A stretch of 64,000 nt of DNA, taken from NCBI GenBank assembly GCA_017546315.1, contig JAFYXH010000007.1, positions 14,508 to 78,507 on the forward strand. Direction: 5' to 3'. This DNA comes from Alphaproteobacteria bacterium (GTDB lineage Bacteria > Pseudomonadota > Alphaproteobacteria > RF32 > CAG-239). Below the pieces are notes generated by a model, which did not search any database, had not been told where the DNA came from, and was given only the letters and a program-made list of their open reading frames with translations. The position numbers and the translations under genes are program-made. Position 1 is the stretch's first letter, and the number at the start of each line of letters is the position of its first letter. Positions 6,296-57,578 of the stretch are shown one piece after another.

Positions 6296-8305
6296 ATGGC
6301 GGGTGTAGAGTTTAATGGTGGTAAAAAAAATATGATTAGGGTTAATATTATGAGAAAAGTTAAGTTAGTTTATTTTTGTTTGTTGTTGTGCGCAATGTTG
6401 GGTGCAAATACTTCTAATGTTGAAGCTGGTGATTTCGATTTTGCAGTGGAAGAATGGGTGGATGAAGAAGTAGAATTAGAAGATGATGTTCTTGCTGATG
6501 AAGAATATGAAGAAGTTGTTGAAGAAGTAGAAGAGTTTGAAGATGAGGGAAATAAGCCAGAGTTTATTCCTGAAGGTGAGATTGATGAGGGGGCTCCTGT
6601 TGCTATTTCTCGTAAAACATCAAAAGTGGTTGGTTCTAAAGAGCTTTTTGATAAGTTAAAATATGGGCAGAAAATTCGTATGGATGATGTTGAGGGGTGG
6701 TTGTTTAATACGTCTGATGTTAATGAATGTCTTGAAAATGGTAAGACTATGTTATTACAGATGGTGGCTTATTCCTCGAATATTGAGGCTATTGCATTGT
6801 TGATTGATCATGGAGCAATATTGGCAACTACTTGTCAGCCTAATTATAATGCTTTATTTGTGGCGGCTCAGAACAATAAATCTCCGGCTGTGGTTGATTT
6901 GTTGATTACTAAAGGTGCTGATATTGTGGTGGAGGATTATGAAGGAAATACTGCTCTTAGTGTGGCGGCTGCTTCTAATCCTAGTGGTGGTGTTGTTGAG
7001 ACATTATTGGAATATGGGTTAAAGATTAACAAACCAAACAAAAGAGGACATACTCCTTTGATGTTGGCGGCTTTTAAGAATGATATTAAAGTTGTTAGAG
7101 AATTATTGAAAAATGGGGCGAATGTTAATCTGGAAGATAAGAATGGTAGGACTGCTTTGATGGCGGCTGCTTTGAGAGGTGATGATGATATTATGCAACT
7201 TCTTATTAAGCATGGGGCTAATTTTAAGGTAGTTGATAAAAACAAAATGAGTGTTCTTGATTATTATAATAAAAATAAATACTTAAAAGATGAAGCATAT
7301 ACAGAAAATAAATACGCTTCTATATCTGAAGTTCTTGAATATCGATATGGGTATGTGAGTGATAATCACTATAAATATAATAAAGATTTAAGAGATGCAG
7401 TGTTTGATGATGAAGCTGAAGCAAAAGTTGATGAAGCGATTAAGAGATTGGCAGATATAAATTCTTTGGATGAATATGGGTGTACCCCTTTGATAAACGC
7501 TGCTCGTAATGATAAATCTTTGAAAGTATTTGAATTGTTGGTTGAAGGTGGGGCGGATGTTAATGCTAGTTGTTTAGAGAAAATTACTCCGTTGATGTTT
7601 GTTTCTACACTTGCGCAAGATAAAGAGCGTGCTAAAGTGGCTATTGAAAAGTTGAAATTGTTAAATGATTATAAGTTAGATATTGACTTAGCAGATGAGG
7701 GTGGAAATACTGCTTTGATGTATGCTTTACAATCAGGGGCTAATATCAATTTTGTGGCTAGTTTGCTTGCGTTGAATGCGGATGTTAATGTAGTTAATAA
7801 GCGAGGTGAAACTCCACTTTGGATTGCGGTTAAACGTAATTTGGGTATAAAGATTATTGAGATGTTAATAGAGTTTGGGGCAGATGTTAATGCTAAAGCT
7901 TTAGATGGTGAAACAATTTTGTGGCATATGTTAAAAAATGGTGAGAGTTCTGAGAAAATTGTCTTGTTGCTTGAGAGCGGAATAGATACATCTGTTGTTA
8001 ATCCAACTGGTAAAACTCCTCTTTGGTATCTTCTTCTTAATGGTGGTAGGGCTGATATTTTGAACGCTTTGATTAAGTTTGAGAAAAATCTGAATGAGCC
8101 TAATGCTGTTGGTGATACGCCGTTGTTGTTTGCAGTTAAGAATGATTATCCGGCTGAGATTATTAAATCTATGCTATATTATGGGGCAGACCCTGAAATG
8201 CGTGATGCTAATGGTATGAATACTATGGATATTATGTCTCAAAATCGCTTCTTTGATATGACAATTAAAGAGCAAACAAGGGCAAAAGTTCTTAATCAGT
8301 GGTGA
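6296..8305 (+). CDS. ankyrin-repeat protein with signal peptide and acidic linker
   Basis: Signal peptide MRKVKLVYFCLLLCAMLGANTSNVEA (true start may be the ATG at 6332 or 6350); acidic stretch EEWVDEEVELEDD...EEVEEFEDE; many canonical ANK repeats (G-TPLM-AA-G---V-LLL--GA-VN). Confidence 0.8.
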   Translation: MAGVEFNGGKKNMIRVNIMRKVKLVYFCLLLCAMLGANTSNVEAGDFDFAVEEWVDEEVELEDDVLADEEYEEVVEEVEEFEDEGNKPEFIPEGEIDEGAPVAISRKTSKVVGSKELFDKLKYGQKIRMDDVEGWLFNTSDVNECLENGKTMLLQMVAYSSNIEAIALLIDHGAILATTCQPNYNALFVAAQNNKSPAVVDLLITKGADIVVEDYEGNTALSVAAASNPSGGVVETLLEYGLKINKPNKRGHTPLMLAAFKNDIKVVRELLKNGANVNLEDKNGRTALMAAALRGDDDIMQLLIKHGANFKVVDKNKMSVLDYYNKNKYLKDEAYTENKYASISEVLEYRYGYVSDNHYKYNKDLRDAVFDDEAEAKVDEAIKRLADINSLDEYGCTPLINAARNDKSLKVFELLVEGGADVNASCLEKITPLMFVSTLAQDKERAKVAIEKLKLLNDYKLDIDLADEGGNTALMYALQSGANINFVASLLALNADVNVVNKRGETPLWIAVKRNLGIKIIEMLIEFGADVNAKALDGETILWHMLKNGESSEKIVLLLESGIDTSVVNPTGKTPLWYLLLNGGRADILNALIKFEKNLNEPNAVGDTPLLFAVKNDYPAEIIKSMLYYGADPEMRDANGMNTMDIMSQNRFFDMTIKEQTRAKVLNQW

Positions 8306-35888: not shown

Positions 35889-36542
35889 TTAGATAAAATC
35901 CTTGAACGTTGTGTTAAATTGTTCGTTAGAAATTATCTCTTCGCAGTAAGTGTTCAGAATGTGGAAGTAATCATGCAAAAACTCTTTACGAAACTCTGTG
36001 AAGCTTGTAATTTGTTTTTGGGAATTTTCGTAATGAAAATACTCCGCATCAAGCACTAACAACTTTGATGAGTATCCGTCAGATGGAGGTGGAACATCCC
36101 CTCTTCTTCGGATTGCGTTTTGGATATTGACCTTTTTGAAGCCAAATGATGTGTTGCAAATAACTTTAGCACCCTTTTCTTTCAACGCTGTTGCGTAGAT
36201 AGTTGTAAAGATTGCCTTGATGTTTGCAATTTTTGCATCTTTGAGGTGTGAAAGTTCTTTGGTGAACTCTACTGCAATATCCTCTGAACGTAAGCGTTCT
36301 GCCAATTTGGTTATCCAAGATTTTACTTGAGCCTCTGTCAATGATAAATCTTCTTTGATATGAAGAGCATCGCAATCAAGTTCATTGTTTAACATCTTGT
36401 TTACAACTCTTTGTGGCAGGTTGTCATTTTCTTTACATGAAGATGCTTCGATTACATCTTGTAAAGTTTGATAAAATAACGTCTCAAATCTGTGCTTTGT
36501 GATCACAGCTAGGTTTTTAATGTAACATCTCATAATTAACAT
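35889..36542 (-). CDS. hypothetical protein (217 aa), orphan
   Basis: ORF bounded by a ~490-bp AT-rich non-coding region; no recognisable motif. Confidence 0.45.
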   Translation of the reverse strand: MLIMRCYIKNLAVITKHRFETLFYQTLQDVIEASSCKENDNLPQRVVNKMLNNELDCDALHIKEDLSLTEAQVKSWITKLAERLRSEDIAVEFTKELSHLKDAKIANIKAIFTTIYATALKEKGAKVICNTSFGFKKVNIQNAIRRRGDVPPPSDGYSSKLLVLDAEYFHYENSQKQITSFTEFRKEFLHDYFHILNTYCEEIISNEQFNTTFKDFI

Positions 36543-36671
36543 AAAAATTGGTTTTCATAATCTTTTATTATATTTGACAAATAAAGTCAATATATTTTTA
36601 TTTTTGTGATAAATAGCTTGATTTTTATTTATTTAGTTGTAGTTTTTATTGAAAATTATATCGGAGGTCGC

Positions 36672-37460
36672 ATGAGAAATTTTGGATTAAAACTTTGGAC
36701 AAAAGATTTTGTTAAAAATATTGAGTTTGTTAATGATGCTGAAAGAGCAATAAAAGAAGGTAAATTTGATTATTTAGAGTTGTTTGCCCTTCCCTTGAGC
36801 TATGATGAAACTTATGAAAGTGTTTTGAGCAAATTTGGAGGTGTGAAAGTTATTATACATGCACCTCATGGATTGCAAGGTCTTGATATTTCTGATAAAA
36901 ATGAATTTGAAAACAATAAAAAAAGAATTGAAGATGCGCAAAGATTTGCAGATTTGTTGGAGGCTTCTTTTATCGTGCTACACCCAGGGATGAATGCTGG
37001 TGAAGAATTTTTAGAGGAAAGTATTAGGCAATTTGGATTGTTTAATGATAAAAGATTAACTGTTGAAAATTTACCATCATATTGTTCTCAAACAAAACGG
37101 TTATTACATGGAATTAAGCCTTCTGAAATAAAGCGCTTTATTGATGAAGTTGGGTGTCCTTTTTGCCTTGATTTTTCACACGCAATTTGTGGCGCAAATA
37201 GCTGTAATATCGATATTTATGAGTTTTTAGATGAGATGAAAGCTCTTAATCCTTCTATGTATCATTTGTGTGATGGAGATGTGAATTCTTTAAATGATAG
37301 CCATCTTCATTTTGGTGAGGGAGATTATGATTTAAGAAGATTAGTGCTTGAATATACTAAGGAAAATGCCCTCATCACAATGGAAACAGGGCATGGAATT
37401 CCAAATAGTGTTCAACCTTGGATTTCTGATATAAATTACATCAGAAATGTTATTTCTTAA
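36672..37460 (+). CDS. sugar phosphate isomerase/epimerase (xylose-isomerase-like TIM barrel) family protein
   Basis: Pattern of His/Glu/Asp-bearing strands (IHAPHG, VLHPG, LDFSHA) typical of AP endonuclease 2/xylose isomerase-like fold; RBS ggagg before the ATG at 36672. Confidence 0.5.
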   Translation: MRNFGLKLWTKDFVKNIEFVNDAERAIKEGKFDYLELFALPLSYDETYESVLSKFGGVKVIIHAPHGLQGLDISDKNEFENNKKRIEDAQRFADLLEASFIVLHPGMNAGEEFLEESIRQFGLFNDKRLTVENLPSYCSQTKRLLHGIKPSEIKRFIDEVGCPFCLDFSHAICGANSCNIDIYEFLDEMKALNPSMYHLCDGDVNSLNDSHLHFGEGDYDLRRLVLEYTKENALITMETGHGIPNSVQPWISDINYIRNVIS

Positions 37461-51066: not shown

Positions 51067-52497
51067 ATGAATACGTTTGAGCTGTATAATAGATTTTTAT
51101 CACAAAAAGGAAAAGTTAAGGCTTTTTTATCAGAAAAAGGAGCTATACCTTTTGAAATTGATAAATCCAGTTTAAAAAAAGCATATCCGGTTTTAATTGC
51201 ATCCATTATTGGGCTTAGTTCTTGCTCTTTAAAAAGTAAAGAAGAAAAAGAATATACTACTCCTATTAACAAAGAAATTTTCTACAACAATATTTATAAT
51301 GATGCTGTTGAGATTTATCAACTTGATAAACTCTCTAACGATGAAGCCTTGCCTCAAAAAATGATTGAGGATATTATGCTTGCTAAAAATACTCCAACAC
51401 TTACGGATTATAATTACAATCACATGCCAGAGAATCAGGAAAACTTTTGGAATATTGTTAAAAATGGTGTAAAAATTAGCGTTAATGATGTTGAAAAAAG
51501 CACTAAATTAAGTCGTGAGCAAGTTAAACGATACAAAATTATGGCTTATAAAATGCTATCTCAAATTTCTAGAAAAAAAGGTAGCGTTGATGAAGTTGAT
51601 TTGAGTGGACATAATAACTTAAAAGCATTTAGCTATTTTGAGAAAGTTGTGCAATTTAGAGATAATTATGAAAGAGTTGTCGCTAGAGCTCCAGGGGTTC
51701 ATGATGCGCATTCTGAAATATTTGGGCGTTATTATAAAGATTATTTCAAACTTCATGGTAAATGCGAAGAAAACCCCGAAATTGAAGAGTTTGCTAAAAT
51801 TCTATATAAAAATGATGATAAAGATAAAATATTCTCTTACAAAGATAGTGTTTATTGCAATAAAAAAAGTTATGAAGTTTTAGGCAAATGGTTAAAAGAT
51901 CAAGATATTAAAGATGATAATTTATACTATTTTGAACCTGACTGTAATGATGAATATTGCAATTCAGCCTCTTCCTATTATAAACGAGGTGGTGATTTAG
52001 GTGTTGTTTTAAGCATTCATCCTGAAGGTGATTTGGGTGATGGATTGTACGCCCCTGTTGGTAGTGTTATTATTCATGAATTGATGCACGTTATGCAAAG
52101 AAAGCCTTCTTCTGCGGAACTTCCTATGGATAATGCTATTGAAGGAGCTAACGCTTTTGTAAATAGGCACTTCAAAGAAAGTGCAGGCTATGCTGAAGAA
52201 CTAGCCCCTACTTTGATGTGCCTGATGATTGATGACGAAATCTATAAAGAAAAGAATGGGATTGAGCTTAATAGGGTTGTTGACTATGGTAAGATAAAAG
52301 TTCAGGGGCGAAATATAAATCTCGGTGAATTAGCTATTTGGTTTAGAGAAAAAACGGTTGAGTATAAAAAAACAAATAAAGGCAGATTTAGTGCTGATAA
52401 AATGTTGTGTTCACCTAATGTTTTAAAAGAATTAAAATCTATTTCTAATGGGTATATGCCAGTTAAACAAAAAAACAATTTTACCTTAGATAGATAA
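51067..52497 (+). CDS. putative zinc metalloprotease-like protein (HExxH motif), possible lipoprotein or effector
   Basis: IIHELMHVMQ motif; lipobox-like LSSC about 50 aa in (the true start is uncertain). Confidence 0.55.
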   Translation: MNTFELYNRFLSQKGKVKAFLSEKGAIPFEIDKSSLKKAYPVLIASIIGLSSCSLKSKEEKEYTTPINKEIFYNNIYNDAVEIYQLDKLSNDEALPQKMIEDIMLAKNTPTLTDYNYNHMPENQENFWNIVKNGVKISVNDVEKSTKLSREQVKRYKIMAYKMLSQISRKKGSVDEVDLSGHNNLKAFSYFEKVVQFRDNYERVVARAPGVHDAHSEIFGRYYKDYFKLHGKCEENPEIEEFAKILYKNDDKDKIFSYKDSVYCNKKSYEVLGKWLKDQDIKDDNLYYFEPDCNDEYCNSASSYYKRGGDLGVVLSIHPEGDLGDGLYAPVGSVIIHELMHVMQRKPSSAELPMDNAIEGANAFVNRHFKESAGYAEELAPTLMCLMIDDEIYKEKNGIELNRVVDYGKIKVQGRNINLGELAIWFREKTVEYKKTNKGRFSADKMLCSPNVLKELKSISNGYMPVKQKNNFTLDR

Positions 52498-52520
52498 ATA
52501 TTTAACATTTTTCACATAAA

Positions 52521-52560
52521 TAATATTGACAAAATGCCAAAAATATGATAAATTCCATAT
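52521..52560 (+). promoter_or_regulatory. sigma-70-like promoter (TTGACA -35 at 52526) for small-protein gene 1
   Basis: aatattgacaaaatgccaaaaatatgataaatt is about 80% identical to the promoter-like sequence at 53101-53135. Confidence 0.45.
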
Positions 52561-52584
52561 TGTAAAATTAAAAATTATTAAATT

Positions 52585-52791
52585 ATGAGAGAAGTAAAGA
52601 GAATAGCCATTATGGGCACTTTAGCAATTTTGTGCTGCATAATTGGTTTTTTGGGAAGAGTTAGTACATTTATTGTGCTTTTCTATGTATTTATTGGTGG
52701 TACTTTCTTTTTTGCTTTTAATATGATGATCAAAGATTATAAAGATCAAAAGAAAAGAGAAGCTGAGTTCAAACAAAAATATAAAAAATAA
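52585..52791 (+). CDS. small two-TM membrane protein (array member 1)
   Basis: 68 aa; two hydrophobic helices separated by a GR turn; lysine-rich tail; followed by a hairpin with the ctcccctatt motif. Confidence 0.45.
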   Translation: MREVKRIAIMGTLAILCCIIGFLGRVSTFIVLFYVFIGGTFFFAFNMMIKDYKDQKKREAEFKQKYKK

Positions 52792-52796
52792 TTAGT

Positions 52797-52985
52797 ATGA
52801 AGAAACATTTTTTGTCTGCATTGCAGATATTGCTGTTCTTTATCAGCGGTTGTGGCTTTGCCATAGGTGTAAACACTAATGGTAGAGAACAGTTGATCGC
52901 CTTTATTGTTGGCGGAATTTTTCTTATCATGTTTATGATCGCCTGTTCATGTGAAAAGGCTATAGAACAAAAAGAAGAAAAGTAA
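52797..52985 (+). CDS. small two-TM membrane protein (array member 2)
   Basis: 62 aa; same architecture (TM - NGRE turn - TM - charged tail). Confidence 0.45.
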   Translation: MKKHFLSALQILLFFISGCGFAIGVNTNGREQLIAFIVGGIFLIMFMIACSCEKAIEQKEEK

Positions 52986-53100
52986 AAAAACAATCTCCCC
53001 TATTTTATTGCACGATGCAGTAATGTGGGATTTTTTTTATAAAAACAGAAAATATTAATACTAAATGTTAATTTTTTTGATAAAATAAATTTCAATAAAG

Positions 53101-53135
53101 AATATTGACAAAAAACCAAAACAATATAGAATTGA
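53101..53135 (+). promoter_or_regulatory. sigma-70-like promoter (TTGACA at 53105) for small-protein gene 3
   Basis: aatattgacaaaaaaccaaaacaatatagaatt; duplicate of the sequence at 52521. Confidence 0.45.
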
Positions 53136-53161
53136 TTTAGAAATTTAAAATTTTTTATATT

Positions 53162-53320
53162 ATGAAAAAAAATCTCTTAATAAATGGATTGTTGATAGCG
53201 TATGTCGCATTGATGACAGCAGCTTTGTTTCTTGAAGGCAGAGAAAGTCGTGTTATGTTATGCATTGGTGGTGGTTGTTTTCTTGCTTATTACCTTATCA
53301 CCTCGAACAAATTCAAATGA
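53162..53320 (+). CDS. small two-TM membrane protein (array member 3; below the ORF-track size cutoff)
   Basis: 52 aa, MKKNLLINGLLIAYVALMTAALFLEGRESRVMLCIGGGCFLAYYLITSNKFK, translated by hand; terminator with the ctcccctatt motif follows. Confidence 0.4.
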   Translation: MKKNLLINGLLIAYVALMTAALFLEGRESRVMLCIGGGCFLAYYLITSNKFK

Positions 53321-53456
53321 TTTTGTAGAAGCTTCTAGTATTTTGAGAAAACTAATCCCCTATTTTATTGCAAAATGCAATAATGGGGGATTTTTAGTTT
53401 GACAAATGAGTTTTTTGTAGATATGTCTTCAGTCTAATTTTAATTTTTATTATATT

Positions 53457-53693
53457 ATGAGTAAATATTCTTTTGCTGTGTTTGCGTGTGCAATACTTAG
53501 TGTGCTTTGTGTTGTTTATGCCCTTATGGGGGATAAGGAGTTTTCAACTTATGCTTGGTTTGGATCTATTAGTTGTGCTATTCTTTGCTTGATTGGCTAT
53601 TCGTGTGAAAATGCCGCTACGGTTAATGATGAAGGCGAAGATGACTATTATGCTGATGGTGATTGTTCAAACAAAGATTACACAGAGAAATAA
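53457..53693 (+). CDS. small two-TM membrane protein (array member 4) with an acidic tail
   Basis: 78 aa; two Cys-rich hydrophobic helices; promoter-like TTGACA at 53399; terminator tctcccc/ggggaga + T6 at 53701-53740. Confidence 0.45.
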   Translation: MSKYSFAVFACAILSVLCVVYALMGDKEFSTYAWFGSISCAILCLIGYSCENAATVNDEGEDDYYADGDCSNKDYTEK

Positions 53694-53801
53694 TCAAAAA
53701 GTCTCCCCTATTCTTTAATGAATTTGGGGAGATTTTTTGTGATTAAATCTATAGAAAATTCTTGCTTTTTTGTGGAGTTTGGGTGTAAAAAATGTCTTGC
53801 T

Positions 53802-53892
<91 letters not shown>

Positions 53893-53936
53893 GTTGTTTT
53901 GTTTTAATAAAGTTTTAAGAAATATCTTTAAAGCAA

Positions 53937-53963: not shown

Positions 53964-54599
53964 TTATTCCACTTTGTATTCTTTTTCAAAAAATACATCC
54001 ACTACAATTTTTTCGTTTAAGAAGTAGTATTTCTTGATTTTCAAAGTGATTTTTTTCTTTTCGATAAGCACATCATAATCGAAATGGAGATAATTATCCC
54101 CATTGAGGCTTTCAACACCACCTATTAGCATATCCTTATACTCGGTATATTTTTTGCCATAGGATACTTCGCCGAAAAGAAATGGTTCGTCATAACATTT
54201 CTTATTTTTCCAACCGTTGAGGGCAGAATAAGTTAGAACATTTACGACAGGAACTTCGTAAGCTGTTGTGAAGCTTCCATCTGATTGCAACGAATAGCTG
54301 TGATCATGAATATAGTCAACAACGTTTGCACCGGTTTTTGCCTGAAACTGCACATCAACTACGACTAGCTCTGAACCTGTCCAATGAAATAGCGTTCGGC
54401 AATCATCTGTTTGCAACCAAATGCGAGATGAAGCAAAGTAATCATTTACATCATCACTAACAGCTAAGATTTCACCTTTGTGCCAAATATTTTCTACTTG
54501 GATGTCAGTTTGAACTTCAGCTTTTGGCTCGTTAATCACTTGTGCTTGGAGCACCACAGCACTTACGATCATAATGATCATAAAGAAAAATCTCTTCAT
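53964..54599 (-). CDS. secreted hypothetical protein
   Basis: Signal peptide MKRFFFMIIMIVSAVVLQAQV (start taken at the internal ATG 54599; the ORF track extends to 54674). Confidence 0.5.
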   Translation of the reverse strand: MKRFFFMIIMIVSAVVLQAQVINEPKAEVQTDIQVENIWHKGEILAVSDDVNDYFASSRIWLQTDDCRTLFHWTGSELVVVDVQFQAKTGANVVDYIHDHSYSLQSDGSFTTAYEVPVVNVLTYSALNGWKNKKCYDEPFLFGEVSYGKKYTEYKDMLIGGVESLNGDNYLHFDYDVLIEKKKITLKIKKYYFLNEKIVVDVFFEKEYKVE

Positions 54600-54725
54600 A
54601 ATAATAAGATTTTTTTGTTCAACATAAATATAGTTATCAGTAACAAACGTGTAGTATTTTTGTTTATTTGTCAATATGTTTTTTTAGATATATTTTTCAC
54701 ATAATTTGTTTTTAGATTTTGGATT

Positions 54726-56018: not shown

Positions 56019-57083
56019 ATGTCTCGTGCCGAAGATATTTTTGAAAAACTAGTTTATTTTGGCGAAGATGCTATTGATGAGTTTATATTAAATCGCCAAA
56101 CAGAAGAGTTGTTTATGGATTTTAAGCAAGCAGTTTCTGATGGTAAATGTATGAGAGCACTTCATCAAAACGACAGAAGAAATTTGGCAAAAGCAATATC
56201 TGCTTTTGGCAACTCTGAAGGTGGTGTTTTGGTTTGGGGTGTTGAGTGTGCAAGAGATGTTGAGCTTGGAGATGTTGCGCAAGCAAAGGTTAAGGTTAAA
56301 AATGTTCATAGATTTTTGAGCTGGCTTGAGGGGGCAATTTCTGGATGCACAATTCCTTCTCATAATAAGGTTAGAAATCATATAATTTCGGTTGATAAAA
56401 ATGGTGATGGTTTTTTGGCTACTTATATTCCTAAATCGGATATTGCGCCACTGATGACAACAAGTGGAAGTCAAGTTTATATTAGGTCTGGGTCTAACAA
56501 TGTGCCTGCACCCTATTCTGTTATTGCGGGAATGTTTGGCCGACGTCCTCAACCCAATATTGAGATGGTTATTGATAATAAGATGATCGAAGTGGCGAAA
56601 GAAAATGAAGATGATATTTTTAGACCACTTAAGAAAAGTAGTAAAAAAGAGAGTGTGGTTAAGGTTCGATTTTCGCTATTGGCTGAGAATAACTCTAATG
56701 CTATTGCTAAGGAAGTATTTTTATCTTGCAATACCTTGAGTGTGGGGGGAGATAAGAATAAGGTAAACTTTTATTATGATTCTCAATTAGAGAACTTAGC
56801 GTCCATGCATAATTCTATTAACCTTATAACTCCGATTGAAATGCGTATTCCACCTAGGGCATTGTTTAGTTGTGCTAAGGCAGAAATTAGATTTTACAAT
56901 GATATTTCAGAAGATTTTTTGATGGAAGGTGTTATTGGAGCTGAGGGGAGCATTCCTAAGAGTTTTAGAATTTCTATATCTAAGAATGATTTACGCTCTT
57001 TTGTGGCACAAGCTTTGAAGAAAAATGCTAATTTAGAAGTTCTGACAAATGAGTTTTTTTCGGAGTATTTGAATAGCGAGTAA
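56019..57083 (+). CDS. AlbA_2 (Schlafen-like putative DNA-binding) domain protein
   Basis: N-terminal block EELFMDFKQ...AISAFGNSEGGVLVWGVE matches the AlbA_2/divergent-AAA signature (E..L.FK ... AFAN..GG.L..GV). Confidence 0.5.
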   Translation: MSRAEDIFEKLVYFGEDAIDEFILNRQTEELFMDFKQAVSDGKCMRALHQNDRRNLAKAISAFGNSEGGVLVWGVECARDVELGDVAQAKVKVKNVHRFLSWLEGAISGCTIPSHNKVRNHIISVDKNGDGFLATYIPKSDIAPLMTTSGSQVYIRSGSNNVPAPYSVIAGMFGRRPQPNIEMVIDNKMIEVAKENEDDIFRPLKKSSKKESVVKVRFSLLAENNSNAIAKEVFLSCNTLSVGGDKNKVNFYYDSQLENLASMHNSINLITPIEMRIPPRALFSCAKAEIRFYNDISEDFLMEGVIGAEGSIPKSFRISISKNDLRSFVAQALKKNANLEVLTNEFFSEYLNSE

Positions 57084-57137
57084 TTTGTTTAATGGTTTAG
57101 AAATAACAAAATAAATAAAATATATAAAGGAAATAAA

Positions 57138-57578
57138 ATGAAAAGAGTTGAGATTTTTACTGATGGGGCGTGTTCTGGCAATCCTGGTGCTGGCGGATGG
57201 GGTGCGATATTAAGATATAATGATGTTGAAAAAGAATTATCAGGTGGAGAAGCTGAAACAACCAACAACCGCATGGAGTTAACGGCGGTTATTAGTGCTT
57301 TGGAAGCTTTGAAGGAAAGTTGTAATATTACTCTTTATACTGATAGTCGCTATGTGATGGATGGTATTGAAAAGTGGATTTTCCAATGGAAGAAAAATGG
57401 ATGGAAAACATCTAATAAAAAAAGCCCAGTAAAGAATGTTGAGTTATGGCAAAGATTAGATGAGTTAAGAAGTCGTCATGAAATTAGATGGGTATGGGTT
57501 AAAGGGCATGCTGGCCATAAAGAAAATGAAAGATGTGATGAATTGGCTCGAATGGAAGCACAAAAGTTTAAAAATTAA
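57138..57578 (+). CDS. rnhA: ribonuclease HI
   Basis: [47 protein letters not shown]: canonical RNase H active-site blocks. Confidence 0.9.

Follow-up and report, generated by a model that had tools for sequence, protein, structure and literature searches.

An array of predicted promoter-miniprotein-terminator cassettes that is gained and lost unit by unit in uncultured gut Alphaproteobacteria

The window analyzed here, a 64,000-nucleotide stretch of alphaproteobacterial DNA, carries four small open reading frames of 68, 62, 52, and 78 aa (g1 to g4) on the forward strand, in a slot between the gene of a 476-aa HExxH protein and tRNA-Ser(CGA) (Table 1). The lengths given for the four ORFs in a preliminary description of this DNA were borne out. 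The same description had read the array as repeats of a promoter-ORF-terminator cassette; this layout was retained, with three cassettes rather than four, since gene 2 lacks a separate promoter and starts 5 nt past the stop codon of gene 1. As predicted from the sequence, the array therefore comprises [g1-g2], [g3], and [g4], each an insulated sigma-70 transcription unit. The HExxH protein at the left border has 38 orthologues with 34-62% identity, in which H337, E338, and H341 are invariant. In 25 of the 28 loci from related genomes, its gene adjoins tRNA-Ser(cga). Searches of Pfam and of the PDB (profile against PDB sequences) returned no match for this protein.

Table 1. Predicted features of the slot and its borders, with positions in the window
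Feature	Position	Strand	Description
Upstream anchor gene, 476-aa membrane-anchored HExxH protein	51067..52497	+	Left border of the slot, outside the array
P1	52526..52554	+	TTGACA, 17-nt spacer, TAAATT; TG before the -10 (extended -10); 10/12 matches
g1, 68-aa type-1 miniprotein	52585..52791	+	Two predicted helices, basic tail (+9/-4)
g2, 62-aa type-2 miniprotein	52797..52985	+	5-nt gap to g1; predicted co-transcription
T1	52995..53038	+	Hairpin followed by T-run; -13.6 kcal/mol, z -3.2
P2	53105..53132	+	TTGACA, 16-nt spacer, TAGAAT; 11/12 matches
g3, 52-aa type-2-like miniprotein	53162..53320	+	Without the SCEKA tail
T2	53355..53395	+	Hairpin, -20.0 kcal/mol, z -4.9
P3	53399..53427	+	TTGACA, 17-nt spacer, TATGTC (weak -10)
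g4, 78-aa type-4 miniprotein	53457..53693	+	IGYSCENA motif after helix 2; acidic tail (+2/-10)
T3	53695..53739	+	Hairpin, -24.1 kcal/mol, z -6.8
tRNA-Ser(CGA)	53802..53892	+	Right border of the slot; own promoter and terminator

The TTGACA boxes reported at 52526, 53105, and 53399 were found at exactly these positions, 59, 57, and 58 nt ahead of the first ATG of their units. The hexamer is not enriched across the window (20 on the forward strand versus 20.4 expected), and in the relatives a TTGAC lies 51-74 nt upstream of 18 of the 19 cassette-first genes. The resemblance previously noted between the promoters of genes 1 and 3 (P1 and P2) was confirmed, with 24 of 27 nt in common. Over the region from -66 to +3, P1 agrees with P2 at 54/69 nt, and equally with promoters A and B of the sister-species locus L039, whereas unrelated upstream regions in the window gave 41.9 +/- 2.9 with a maximum of 49. 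P3 is borderline against both P1 and P2 (43-44/69); its counterpart in L039 reads TTGACA-17-TATCAT, with 11/12 matches. Within the window, AATATTGACAAAA occurs exactly at P1 and P2 only. Part of the P1/P2 likeness is the genome-wide promoter consensus, and TTGACAAAnnnnCAAAAA was also found at 1345 (+) and 54674 (-). Two further candidate elements were discarded. An operator-like palindrome over the -35 box, TTGACAAATAGTCAA, was set aside because it is perfect only in L039 and in L044, a close relative of L039, while being degenerate in the window and missing from more distant relatives; an antisense promoter built on the TTCACA common to the minus strands of g2 and g4 was dropped because the orthologous L039 positions, compared by eye, do not have it.

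The predicted leaders of about 25-30 nt are AU-rich and unstructured (z-scores +0.87, +1.33, and -0.29). The earlier remark that the genes have no Shine-Dalgarno sequence was also correct, with none in the four genes versus an AGGAG-like motif in about 30 of 50 long ORFs of the window. The unstructured, AU-rich leader without Shine-Dalgarno sequence is a conserved feature of the cassette.

At the other end of the cassettes, TCCCCTATT is present in four copies in the 64 kb versus 0.52 expected, and three of these four lie inside the array, at 52996, 53356, and 53704. A shared 'ctcccctatt' arm had been described for all three hairpins; the exact 10-mer is located at 52995 and 53703, while the middle copy reads 'atcccctatt', and the positions originally given were 1-2 nt off. 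T1 and T2 are identical at 36/40 positions, and in the strain contig L007 T1 has five changes, retains the hairpin, and is 39/40 identical to T2. The T-run of T2 abuts the -35 box of P3. In the relatives, the orthologue of T3 is the terminator that comes last ahead of tRNA-Ser; T3 is 36/42 identical to the terminator of L039 cassette D, and its form recurs in L040 and L011.

Each of the four peptides showed the common architecture proposed for them, in which two hydrophobic stretches are joined by a short loop of G/R/E/D/K residues and followed by a charged tail; in addition, each begins with a basic N-terminus. According to these predictions, the four are small inner-membrane proteins forming two-helix hairpins, and the basic N-terminus of each leads to a predicted N-in/C-in topology. 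AlphaFold placed helices at residues 2-23 and 26-66 of g1 (pLDDT 74.8) and at 2-26 and 30-61 of g2 (pLDDT 82.7). A Foldseek search of the PDB with the g2 model returned generic helical hairpins alone (E >= 0.96). The net charge of the tail is -1 in g2 and -8 in g4. A possible lipobox in g2 (FISGC) was considered and the lipoprotein reading rejected, since the cysteine is absent in the orthologues.

The preliminary description had left open that these are small-RNA genes, and had named as decisive whether frame-shifts separate orthologues while the nucleotide sequence is kept. The opposite was observed when positional counterparts of the small ORFs from 10 related MAG loci were compared: the frames are retained as the nucleotides diverge, with pS of 0.65-0.93 versus pN of 0.32-0.36, and differences fall on the codon positions in the order 3>1>2. 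For g1 and its orthologue B1 in L039 (27/65 aa identical), pN was 0.36 and pS 0.81, and for g4 and L039 D the values were 0.36 and 0.68. Synonymous sites are saturated across the related loci, so the dN/dS values are rough. At the strain level, contigs L001-L010 encode the same proteins and are 99.2-100% identical to the window, with almost no variation. The locus is also present in the metagenome runs SRR12529254 and SRR12529248. Among strain variants no indel was found inside the ORFs and one just past a stop codon. The substitutions comprise three amino acid changes in g1 of P0002, every one in the tail, three synonymous and two non-synonymous changes in g2 of L007, a conservative A21V in g3 of L006, and a single synonymous substitution in g4. 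Judged by these substitution patterns, the four ORFs are protein-coding and not sRNA genes.

That they could instead be non-coding sRNA genes, or chance ORFs in AT-rich DNA, is highly improbable in our assessment. Such a reading would account for the missing Shine-Dalgarno sequences in a genome that uses them, and for ORFs that are less conserved than their promoters and terminators; hydrophobic ORFs also arise readily from T-rich DNA. It is opposed by the persistence of reading frames, ORF lengths, and the two-helix architecture between species whose synonymous sites are saturated, and by motifs such as IGYSC(E/D)NA that are conserved at the protein level alone. Stop-free runs of 52-78 codons would each have a probability of about 0.02-0.002 at the local base composition, by a rough estimate, and Rfam matched the tRNA alone in the 50-56 kb portion of the window (E <= 1).

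The idea that the four are diverged copies of one peptide was upheld in part: g2, g3, and g4 belong to one family, and g1 is not detectably related to them. Direct paralogy among the four window peptides was not significant against architecture (segment)-preserving shuffles (p 0.17-0.87), and g2, g3, and g4 are linked only through orthologue-enriched profiles. With orthologues added, type 4 matched type 2 in hhalign (96.7%, E 3.8e-10), while type 1 gave 1.6% and 12% against type 2 and type 4. The proteins are thus two clade-restricted orphan types, type 1 (g1) and type 2/4 (g2, g3, and g4). Together with a further type in L015/L016, to which hhalign showed no relation, three mutually unrecognizable types occupy the same slot. 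In type 2/4, the juxtamembrane motif (Y/H)SC(E/D/N)NA is conserved and the tail is neutral to acidic. The orthologues of g2 are L039 B2 and C2, L012, L014, and L043a; those of g4 are L039 D, L040b, L011b, L043b, P0058, and P0044, with G-Y-S-C..A invariant. The most diverged copy is g3, which is identical to B2 and C2 at 14-17 of about 50 aa and can be aligned to type 2 by its GRES loop and the helix 2 GG. Type 2/4 appears to be the older occupant of the slot. The tail of type 1 is strongly basic, and wherever a unit has two genes, the type 1 gene lies directly 5' of a type-2 gene, with g1 and g2 being 5 nt apart, L039 B1 and B2 overlapping by ATGA, and C1 and C2 12 nt apart; in L039 cassette A, a type 1 gene stands alone.

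The miniproteins are confined to a small group of uncultured gut Alphaproteobacteria. A word-seeded search of 5.8 billion proteins produced 17 matches, all from this clade, and an exhaustive HMMER search of 1.84 billion representatives produced 10, nine of which were family members and one a spurious repetitive protein. Scans of viral contigs (type 4, g1, and g2) and of a JGI metagenome set (type 4) found no relatives. Nothing above threshold was obtained from Pfam, PHROGs, NCBIfam, or PADLOC for the four proteins and six neighbors. Pfam searches with all 19 family members gave none above the cut-off and scattered transmembrane noise, including one member with Hol_Tox at E 0.086. The profiles of Pmp3/YqaE (PF01679) and other curated small-membrane-protein families likewise gave no match above threshold, with none in NCBIfam, and a literature search yielded nothing specific to the family.

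Comparison of the relatives agreed with the earlier proposal that the promoter-ORF(s)-terminator cassette is the evolving unit, as they differ by whole cassettes. In the L039 locus, six genes are distributed over four cassettes (A to D); the promoter-leader modules there are identical at 54-62 of 69 nt (62/69 or about 90% for the closest pair), and the terminators are of the same TCCCCT...GGGGATTTT form. L044 contains cassettes A, C, and D, one whole cassette fewer. Across the relatives the slot holds 0, 1, 2, 4, or 6 genes, with two in L043, L040, and L011 and one in L012-L016, and in 19 outgroup loci it is empty, with just 78-274 nt from the anchor gene to the tRNA. Promoter-leaders are 54/69 identical within and between species, versus 57-62% nucleotide identity in the coding sequences. 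The array gains and loses whole cassettes, and the likely route is that its promoter-leader and terminator modules, which are repeated and better conserved than the coding sequences, recombine unequally.

The same distribution bears on a role for the miniproteins as accessory or regulatory subunits (substrates, inhibitors, or anchors) of the adjacent HExxH protein, a putative zinc peptidase. The small genes always lie directly 3' of the 476-aa gene, and no hairpin terminator is visible between its stop codon (52497) and P1, as would suit a functional link. We nevertheless give this role little credence, as 19 loci have retained the 476-aa gene without any small gene, every cassette has its own promoter, and such swings in copy number are unusual for a stoichiometric partner.

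It is conceivable, though doubtful, that the slot is a birthplace of new genes, in which T-rich DNA between a strong promoter and a terminator gave rise de novo to two-helix miniproteins in an ancestor of the low-GC clade, possibly more than once, followed by amplification and diversification into interacting pairs. There is no ancestral non-coding sequence that aligns to an ORF, so this origin is hypothetical. Compatible with it are the empty slot in the 19 outgroup loci, the lack of homologues in the 1.84 billion representatives or in phage collections, the genes without Shine-Dalgarno sequences, and the types that hhalign does not relate.

As for function, we tentatively propose, by analogy only, that the proteins would work in the membrane in the form of homo- or hetero-oligomers. 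Type 1, with its basic tail, would perturb the membrane in a toxin-like or holin-like manner, and the co-translated type 2 would be its partner or antagonist. The interaction between the two types is inferred solely from gene order. A role in conflict or stress would be favored over housekeeping because sequence and copy number turn over fast. The structural and evolutionary part of this account carries high confidence, and the combined account of units, types, turnover, and proposed function is moderately probable. Taken together, the locus encodes what its sequences support well as an orphan family of an uncultured gut alphaproteobacterium, with a putative function.

Known type I toxin mRNAs have long structured 5' UTRs. 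The leaders of the cassettes are, in contrast, about 25-30 nt long and unstructured, with no Shine-Dalgarno sequence to sequester. The array nevertheless fits the search criteria for new type I toxins of Fozo et al. (PMC2887945), namely tandem ORFs within a single intergenic region that encode 16-70 aa with a transmembrane region and charged C-termini, the similarity reaching beyond the coding region. As in the tandem type I loci of that study (E. coli ldr-rdl 'LDR' and ibs-sib; zorO-orzO; PMC2887945), small hydrophobic proteins with charged C-termini are encoded in tandem intergenic repeats, the similarity extends into the regulatory DNA on either side, and relatives differ in copy number. 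The likeness is inexact, as the miniproteins have two transmembrane helices rather than one and span 52-78 aa, with g4 reaching 78 aa; their sequences are not related to those of any known toxin family, and two of their genes can form an operon with translational coupling. Hydrophobic self-toxins whose translation is restrained by antisense sRNAs are therefore an improbable explanation in our view, even if an absent Shine-Dalgarno sequence would hold translation low. An antisense sRNA gene was not found by Rfam or among minus-strand promoter-like sites, which were not above shuffles (10 vs 7.7 +/- 2.8 and 14 vs 10 +/- 3.1); none of those that are shared would overlap an mRNA. In the sister species (L039), a terminator and the promoter after it are just about 12 nt apart, which leaves no room for a separate sRNA gene there.

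Class II holins or pinholins such as S21 of phage 21 are proteins of about 70 aa with two transmembrane helices, an N-in/C-in topology, and a highly basic C-terminal tail. The type 1 proteins share the size, the two predicted helices, the topology, and the basic tail, and among the window genes g1 alone does so, the tails of types 2 and 4 being neutral or acidic. In contrast to holin genes, these are several independently promoted chromosomal cassettes with no endolysin, spanin, or prophage context; the neighbors include no lysin or phage families, and no Pfam or PHROG holin match exceeded sub-threshold transmembrane noise. Judged by the leaders for the type I toxins, and by gene context and sequence family for the holins, the miniproteins probably belong to neither group.

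Class II microcins and pore-forming bacteriocins are countered by small inner-membrane immunity proteins that have their own promoters and diversify rapidly. The miniproteins resemble them in size, two-helix inner-membrane architecture, a strong promoter per unit, fast divergence, and variable gene number, and immunity proteins of class II microcins with two or three transmembrane segments provide a precedent. Polymorphic immunity arrays have been described (PMC3482391). An array of orphan immunity proteins, constitutively expressed and each blocking a different membrane-targeting bacteriocin or microcin of competitors, is still unlikely. No sequence similarity to such proteins was found, and the genes occupy one fixed chromosomal slot with conserved synteny and no mobile or polymorphic-toxin context. 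No bacteriocin precursor gene, export ABC transporter, or toxin domain was found in the ORFs within about 5 kb to either side, a scan of large ORFs in the window gave none either, and the tight type 1-type 2 coupling would be left unexplained.

Transmembrane miniproteins that arose de novo from thymine-rich DNA have been described in yeast (PMC7005711). Like these, the present proteins are taxonomically restricted, small, and transmembrane, have no homologues, and are encoded in T-rich DNA, here in a slot that is empty in outgroups; unlike them, they are found in a bacterial host, and their genes are under purifying selection and amplified. If the de novo reading were true, the locus would be a rare case of a bacterial transmembrane gene born from a T-rich spacer. 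If, as in the proposed account, type 1 and type 2 were a membrane toxin and its partner, the array would match the RNA-controlled type I toxin repeats as their protein-protein counterpart. Too few small membrane proteins are annotated, and the function is known for only a few of them. This locus provides an unusually clear natural series, from an empty slot to one, two, four, and six genes, which displays the birth, copying, pairing, and loss of a promoter-miniprotein-terminator module whose regulatory DNA is better conserved than its protein.

Analysis of the array indicated, with high confidence, that it consists of three insulated, strongly promoted units encoding four predicted inner-membrane hairpin miniproteins, and that whole cassettes are gained and lost as it evolves. 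The four consecutive short ORFs of the preliminary description (g1 to g4) were all present and shared the described two-helix architecture, in which a basic N-terminus precedes two hydrophobic segments (the first of about 20 residues) separated by a short G/R/E/D/K-rich loop, and the protein ends in a charged tail. The host is an uncultured alphaproteobacterium from ruminant gut metagenomes, and the window DNA is chromosomal, encoding UvrA, Lon, ThrRS, formate-tetrahydrofolate ligase, and an ankyrin-repeat protein elsewhere. The NCBI record returned three of the genes (g2, g3, and g4), labelled only as hypothetical proteins (IKW58_02130 to IKW58_02140).

Coordinates of the array, its borders, and other features of the window
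Feature	Position	Strand	Size or content
g1	52585-52791	+	68 aa
g2	52797-52985	+	62 aa
g3	53162-53320	+	52 aa
g4	53457-53693	+	78 aa
Anchor ORF, left border	51067-52497	+	476 aa
tRNA-Ser(CGA), right border	53802-53892	+	
ORF overlapping tRNA-Ser	53718-53918	+	66 aa
Minus-strand ORF	53964-54674	-	236 aa
Schlafen/AlbA_2-domain protein, then RNase H	56019-57578	+	354 aa, 146 aa
Ankyrin-repeat protein	6296-8305	+	669 aa

The TTGACA boxes lay exactly at the described positions 52526, 53105, and 53399, preceding the opening ATG of their respective units by 59, 57, and 58 nt. The hexamer is not enriched on the plus strand of the window (20 observed vs. 20.4 expected); the constant spacing is beyond chance. 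Since g2 has no promoter of its own and starts 5 nt past the g1 stop codon, there are three transcription units, g1-g2, g3, and g4, so that the proposed promoter-ORF-terminator organization was retained while its number was reduced from four. The promoter regions of g1 and g3 (P1 and P2), which had been regarded as duplicated, were identical at 54 of 69 nt (-66 to +3), compared with a mean of 41.9 ± 2.9 and a maximum of 49 for unrelated gene upstreams. This likeness is in part promoter consensus, because -35 boxes of the TTGACAAA type are common in the host genome and the extended motif TTGACAAAnnnnCAAAAA is also present at 1345 (+) and 54674 (-). Each unit was closed by a hairpin with a T-run, as previously noted, with folds of -13.6, -20.0, and -24.1 kcal/mol (z-scores -3.2, -4.9, and -6.8) for terminators T1, T2, and T3. 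The sequence TCCCCTATT occurred four times in 64 kb (0.52 expected), three times inside the array. The lack of a Shine-Dalgarno sequence was confirmed for all four genes, while the host genome uses such sequences, with AGGAG-like motifs at around 30 of 50 long ORFs. The predicted leaders are about 25-30 nt long, AU-rich, and unstructured.

Several observations were made elsewhere in the window. For the 236-aa ORF on the minus strand, which likewise lacks a Shine-Dalgarno sequence, the TTG listed as start codon coincides with the -35 box of a P1/P2-type TTGACAAATAAACAAAAA promoter (54657-54674, -), and the true start is probably the ATG at ~54599 or ~54581 (MKRFFFMIIMIVSAVVLQAQ, signal-peptide-like). 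Between the divergent genes at 35889-36542 (-) and 36606-37460 (+), the palindrome TTGACTTTATTTGTCAA (~36555-36590) places two -35 boxes face to face; the similar palindrome TTGACAAATAGTCAA overlaps cassette promoters of the related loci L039 and L044. The GC skew across positions 1-64000 was extreme (2-kb windows), with (G-C)/(G+C) of +0.3 to +0.54 where genes are on the plus strand and ~0 where they are on the minus strand, which suggests large additive biases of replication strand and coding strand. The ankyrin-repeat protein (Ank_2, E 3e-83), encoded in a gut alphaproteobacterial MAG of 33% GC, hints that the bacterium may live in association with a protist or another eukaryotic host.

The anchor protein had 38 orthologues (34-62% identity), and scanning GTDB species genomes with their alignment yielded 28 loci, 25 of which carried tRNA-Ser(cga) just downstream. 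In 19 of those, the slot between anchor and tRNA measured merely 78-274 nt and contained no small ORF. The slot was filled in the low-GC clade (~30% GC) nearest to the window, with a single two-helix ORF in L012-L016, two such ORFs in L011, L040, and L043, four small genes in three cassettes in L044, and six in four cassettes (A-D) in L039 (62% identity between its anchor protein and that of the window). Contigs with identical miniproteins (99.2-100% identity to the window) added little information. The design is especially plain in L039, where the cassettes run from a promoter-leader through one or two small ORFs to a TCCCCT...GGGGATTTT terminator; A, B, and C share the promoter TTGACAAATAGTCAAAAATATGATAAT and a conserved Shine-Dalgarno-free leader (54-62 of 69 nt identical, the closest pair being A and B with 62/69, ~90%). 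Comparison of the array region of L039 (6400-8250) with that of its close relative L044 (3050-4320) showed cassette B (genes B1 and B2) in the former and its complete absence from the latter. Turnover probably proceeds by recombination involving the repeated modules, promoter-leader and terminator. Conservation of these modules (~78%) exceeds that of the coding DNA (57-62%), and one strain (L007) has T1 and T2 in nearly homogenized form. Repeated duplication of a whole cassette, as originally proposed, was right in outline.

The neighbors of the array were also inspected. The anchor protein contains an invariant H337-E338-x-x-H341, and its hydrophobic N-terminal anchor bears an LSSC motif resembling a lipobox; Pfam and PDB searches gave no match, and the protein could represent a membrane-anchored zincin not yet described. 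Two homologues (L034 and L035; 42% identity), not adjacent to the tRNA, are on contigs binned as Muribaculaceae, which points to horizontal transfer or binning error. Downstream of the tRNA, the Schlafen/AlbA_2 and RNase H pair is syntenic in L039, L043, and L044, and PADLOC returned nothing for it. The 66-aa ORF overlapping the tRNA is listed as a gene for the same contig in ENA's public annotation (L001 7134-7334); this call is almost certainly spurious.

Direct comparison of the four peptides gave no significant similarity (p 0.17-0.87, null preserving hydrophobic architecture). With orthologues added, type 1 comprised g1 and L039 A1, B1, and C1, with a basic tail around M-x-(I/F)-(K/R)-D; type 2 comprised g2, L039 B2 and C2, L012, L014, and L043a, with the hallmarks AIGVN..GNER and SCEKA; and type 4 comprised g4, L039 D, L040b, L011b, L043b, and P0058, with GDKEYSTYA and IGYSC(E/D)NAAxVPDNY. 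Profile alignment showed homology between types 2 and 4 (hhalign 96.7%, E 3.8e-10, 61 columns), and g3 is alignable with type 2, its tail being lost. Type 1 had no detectable relationship to type 2 or type 4 (hhalign 1.6% and 12%). Consequently, the view of four diverged copies of one peptide applies to g2, g3, and g4 and not to g1, and there are two or more types. The single two-helix slot genes of L015 (6540-6758) and L016 (6529-6741) had no detectable relation to types 1, 2, or 4 (hhalign 1.5-35%), reflecting either extreme divergence or independent origin. Some type-4 miniproteins of 79-80 aa (L040 6721-6963; P0045, P0047) carry a ~16-residue tandem duplication in helix 1, with FFVCLTLAVVAFVAA twice; allele P0044 (64 aa) lacks it.

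Checked against the refuting condition set in the preliminary description, the genes proved protein-like and the alternative that these are small-RNA genes failed, as the frames were kept between the window genes and their positional counterparts despite nucleotide divergence. Here pS was 0.65-0.93 (saturated) and non-synonymous divergence 0.32-0.36, the differences by codon position followed 3>1>2 (26, 16, and 39 at positions 1, 2, and 3 for g2 vs. L039 B2), and lengths, frames, and two-helix architecture were preserved. Conserved motifs occurred only at the protein level, such as the invariant G-Y-S-C..A following helix 2 in type 4. The L007 strain variant showed three synonymous and two non-synonymous changes in g2, and in g1 two synonymous and four non-synonymous nucleotide changes producing three residue changes, in the tail only; both ORFs were free of indels, a 1-nt indel lay directly past the g2 stop, and T1 kept its hairpin despite five changes. 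Variant L006 had one synonymous change in g4 and the conservative A21V in g3. Rfam recovered the tRNA alone and no RNA family at the array. Both the sRNA-only and the chance-ORF readings were rejected on the basis of this frame-respecting divergence, the protein-level motifs, the strain variants without ORF indels, and the Rfam result.

AlphaFold modelled g1 and g2 as two long helices with a tight turn (g2: H2-26 and H30-61, pLDDT 82.7; g1: H2-23 and H26-66, pLDDT 74.8, the basic tail extending helix 2), and Foldseek retrieved generic hairpins only. With basic N-termini and loops close to neutral, the proteins are predicted to have an N-in/C-in topology. Wherever a unit holds two genes, a type 1 gene comes first and a type 2 gene follows it directly (gap of 5 nt in g1-g2, ATGA overlap in L039 B, gap of 12 nt in L039 C), and this fixed order with tight or overlapping spacing implies co-translation. 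By analogy, we tentatively consider that the miniproteins could act as membrane oligomers, with basic-tailed type 1 as a candidate membrane-perturbing component, co-translated type 2 as its putative partner or antagonist, and a conflict or stress role as the rapid turnover suggests; as a whole, this functional reading is doubtful. The data are also compatible with transmembrane miniproteins having arisen de novo in this T-rich spacer (compare PMC7005711), a reading that we regard as unlikely.

When 5.8 billion proteins were searched by word seeding with a 19-member profile, the 17 proteins recovered all belonged to this clade, and exhaustive HMMER against 1.84 billion cluster representatives gave 10 matches, nine family members and one repetitive spurious protein. 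No relatives were found in IMG/VR viral contigs (type 4, g1, and g2 probes) or JGI metagenome contigs (type 4 probe), and no family in Pfam, PHROG, NCBIfam, or PADLOC matched the miniproteins. On these searches, they form an orphan system of small proteins confined to this clade, and the evolutionary history of the system is unusually easy to read.

Membership in type I toxin repeats, class II holins, or immunity arrays cannot be claimed. Class II holins have their architecture in common with g1, but the array has no lysis cassette or phage context. The turnover of the array fits immunity arrays, but none of the neighboring genes examined encodes a toxin or exporter. Although the array differs from type I toxin repeats (PMC2887945) in its short, unstructured predicted leaders and its two-helix proteins, and no antisense RNA gene was evident in it or would have room between the L039 cassettes, these repeats are the nearest known design.
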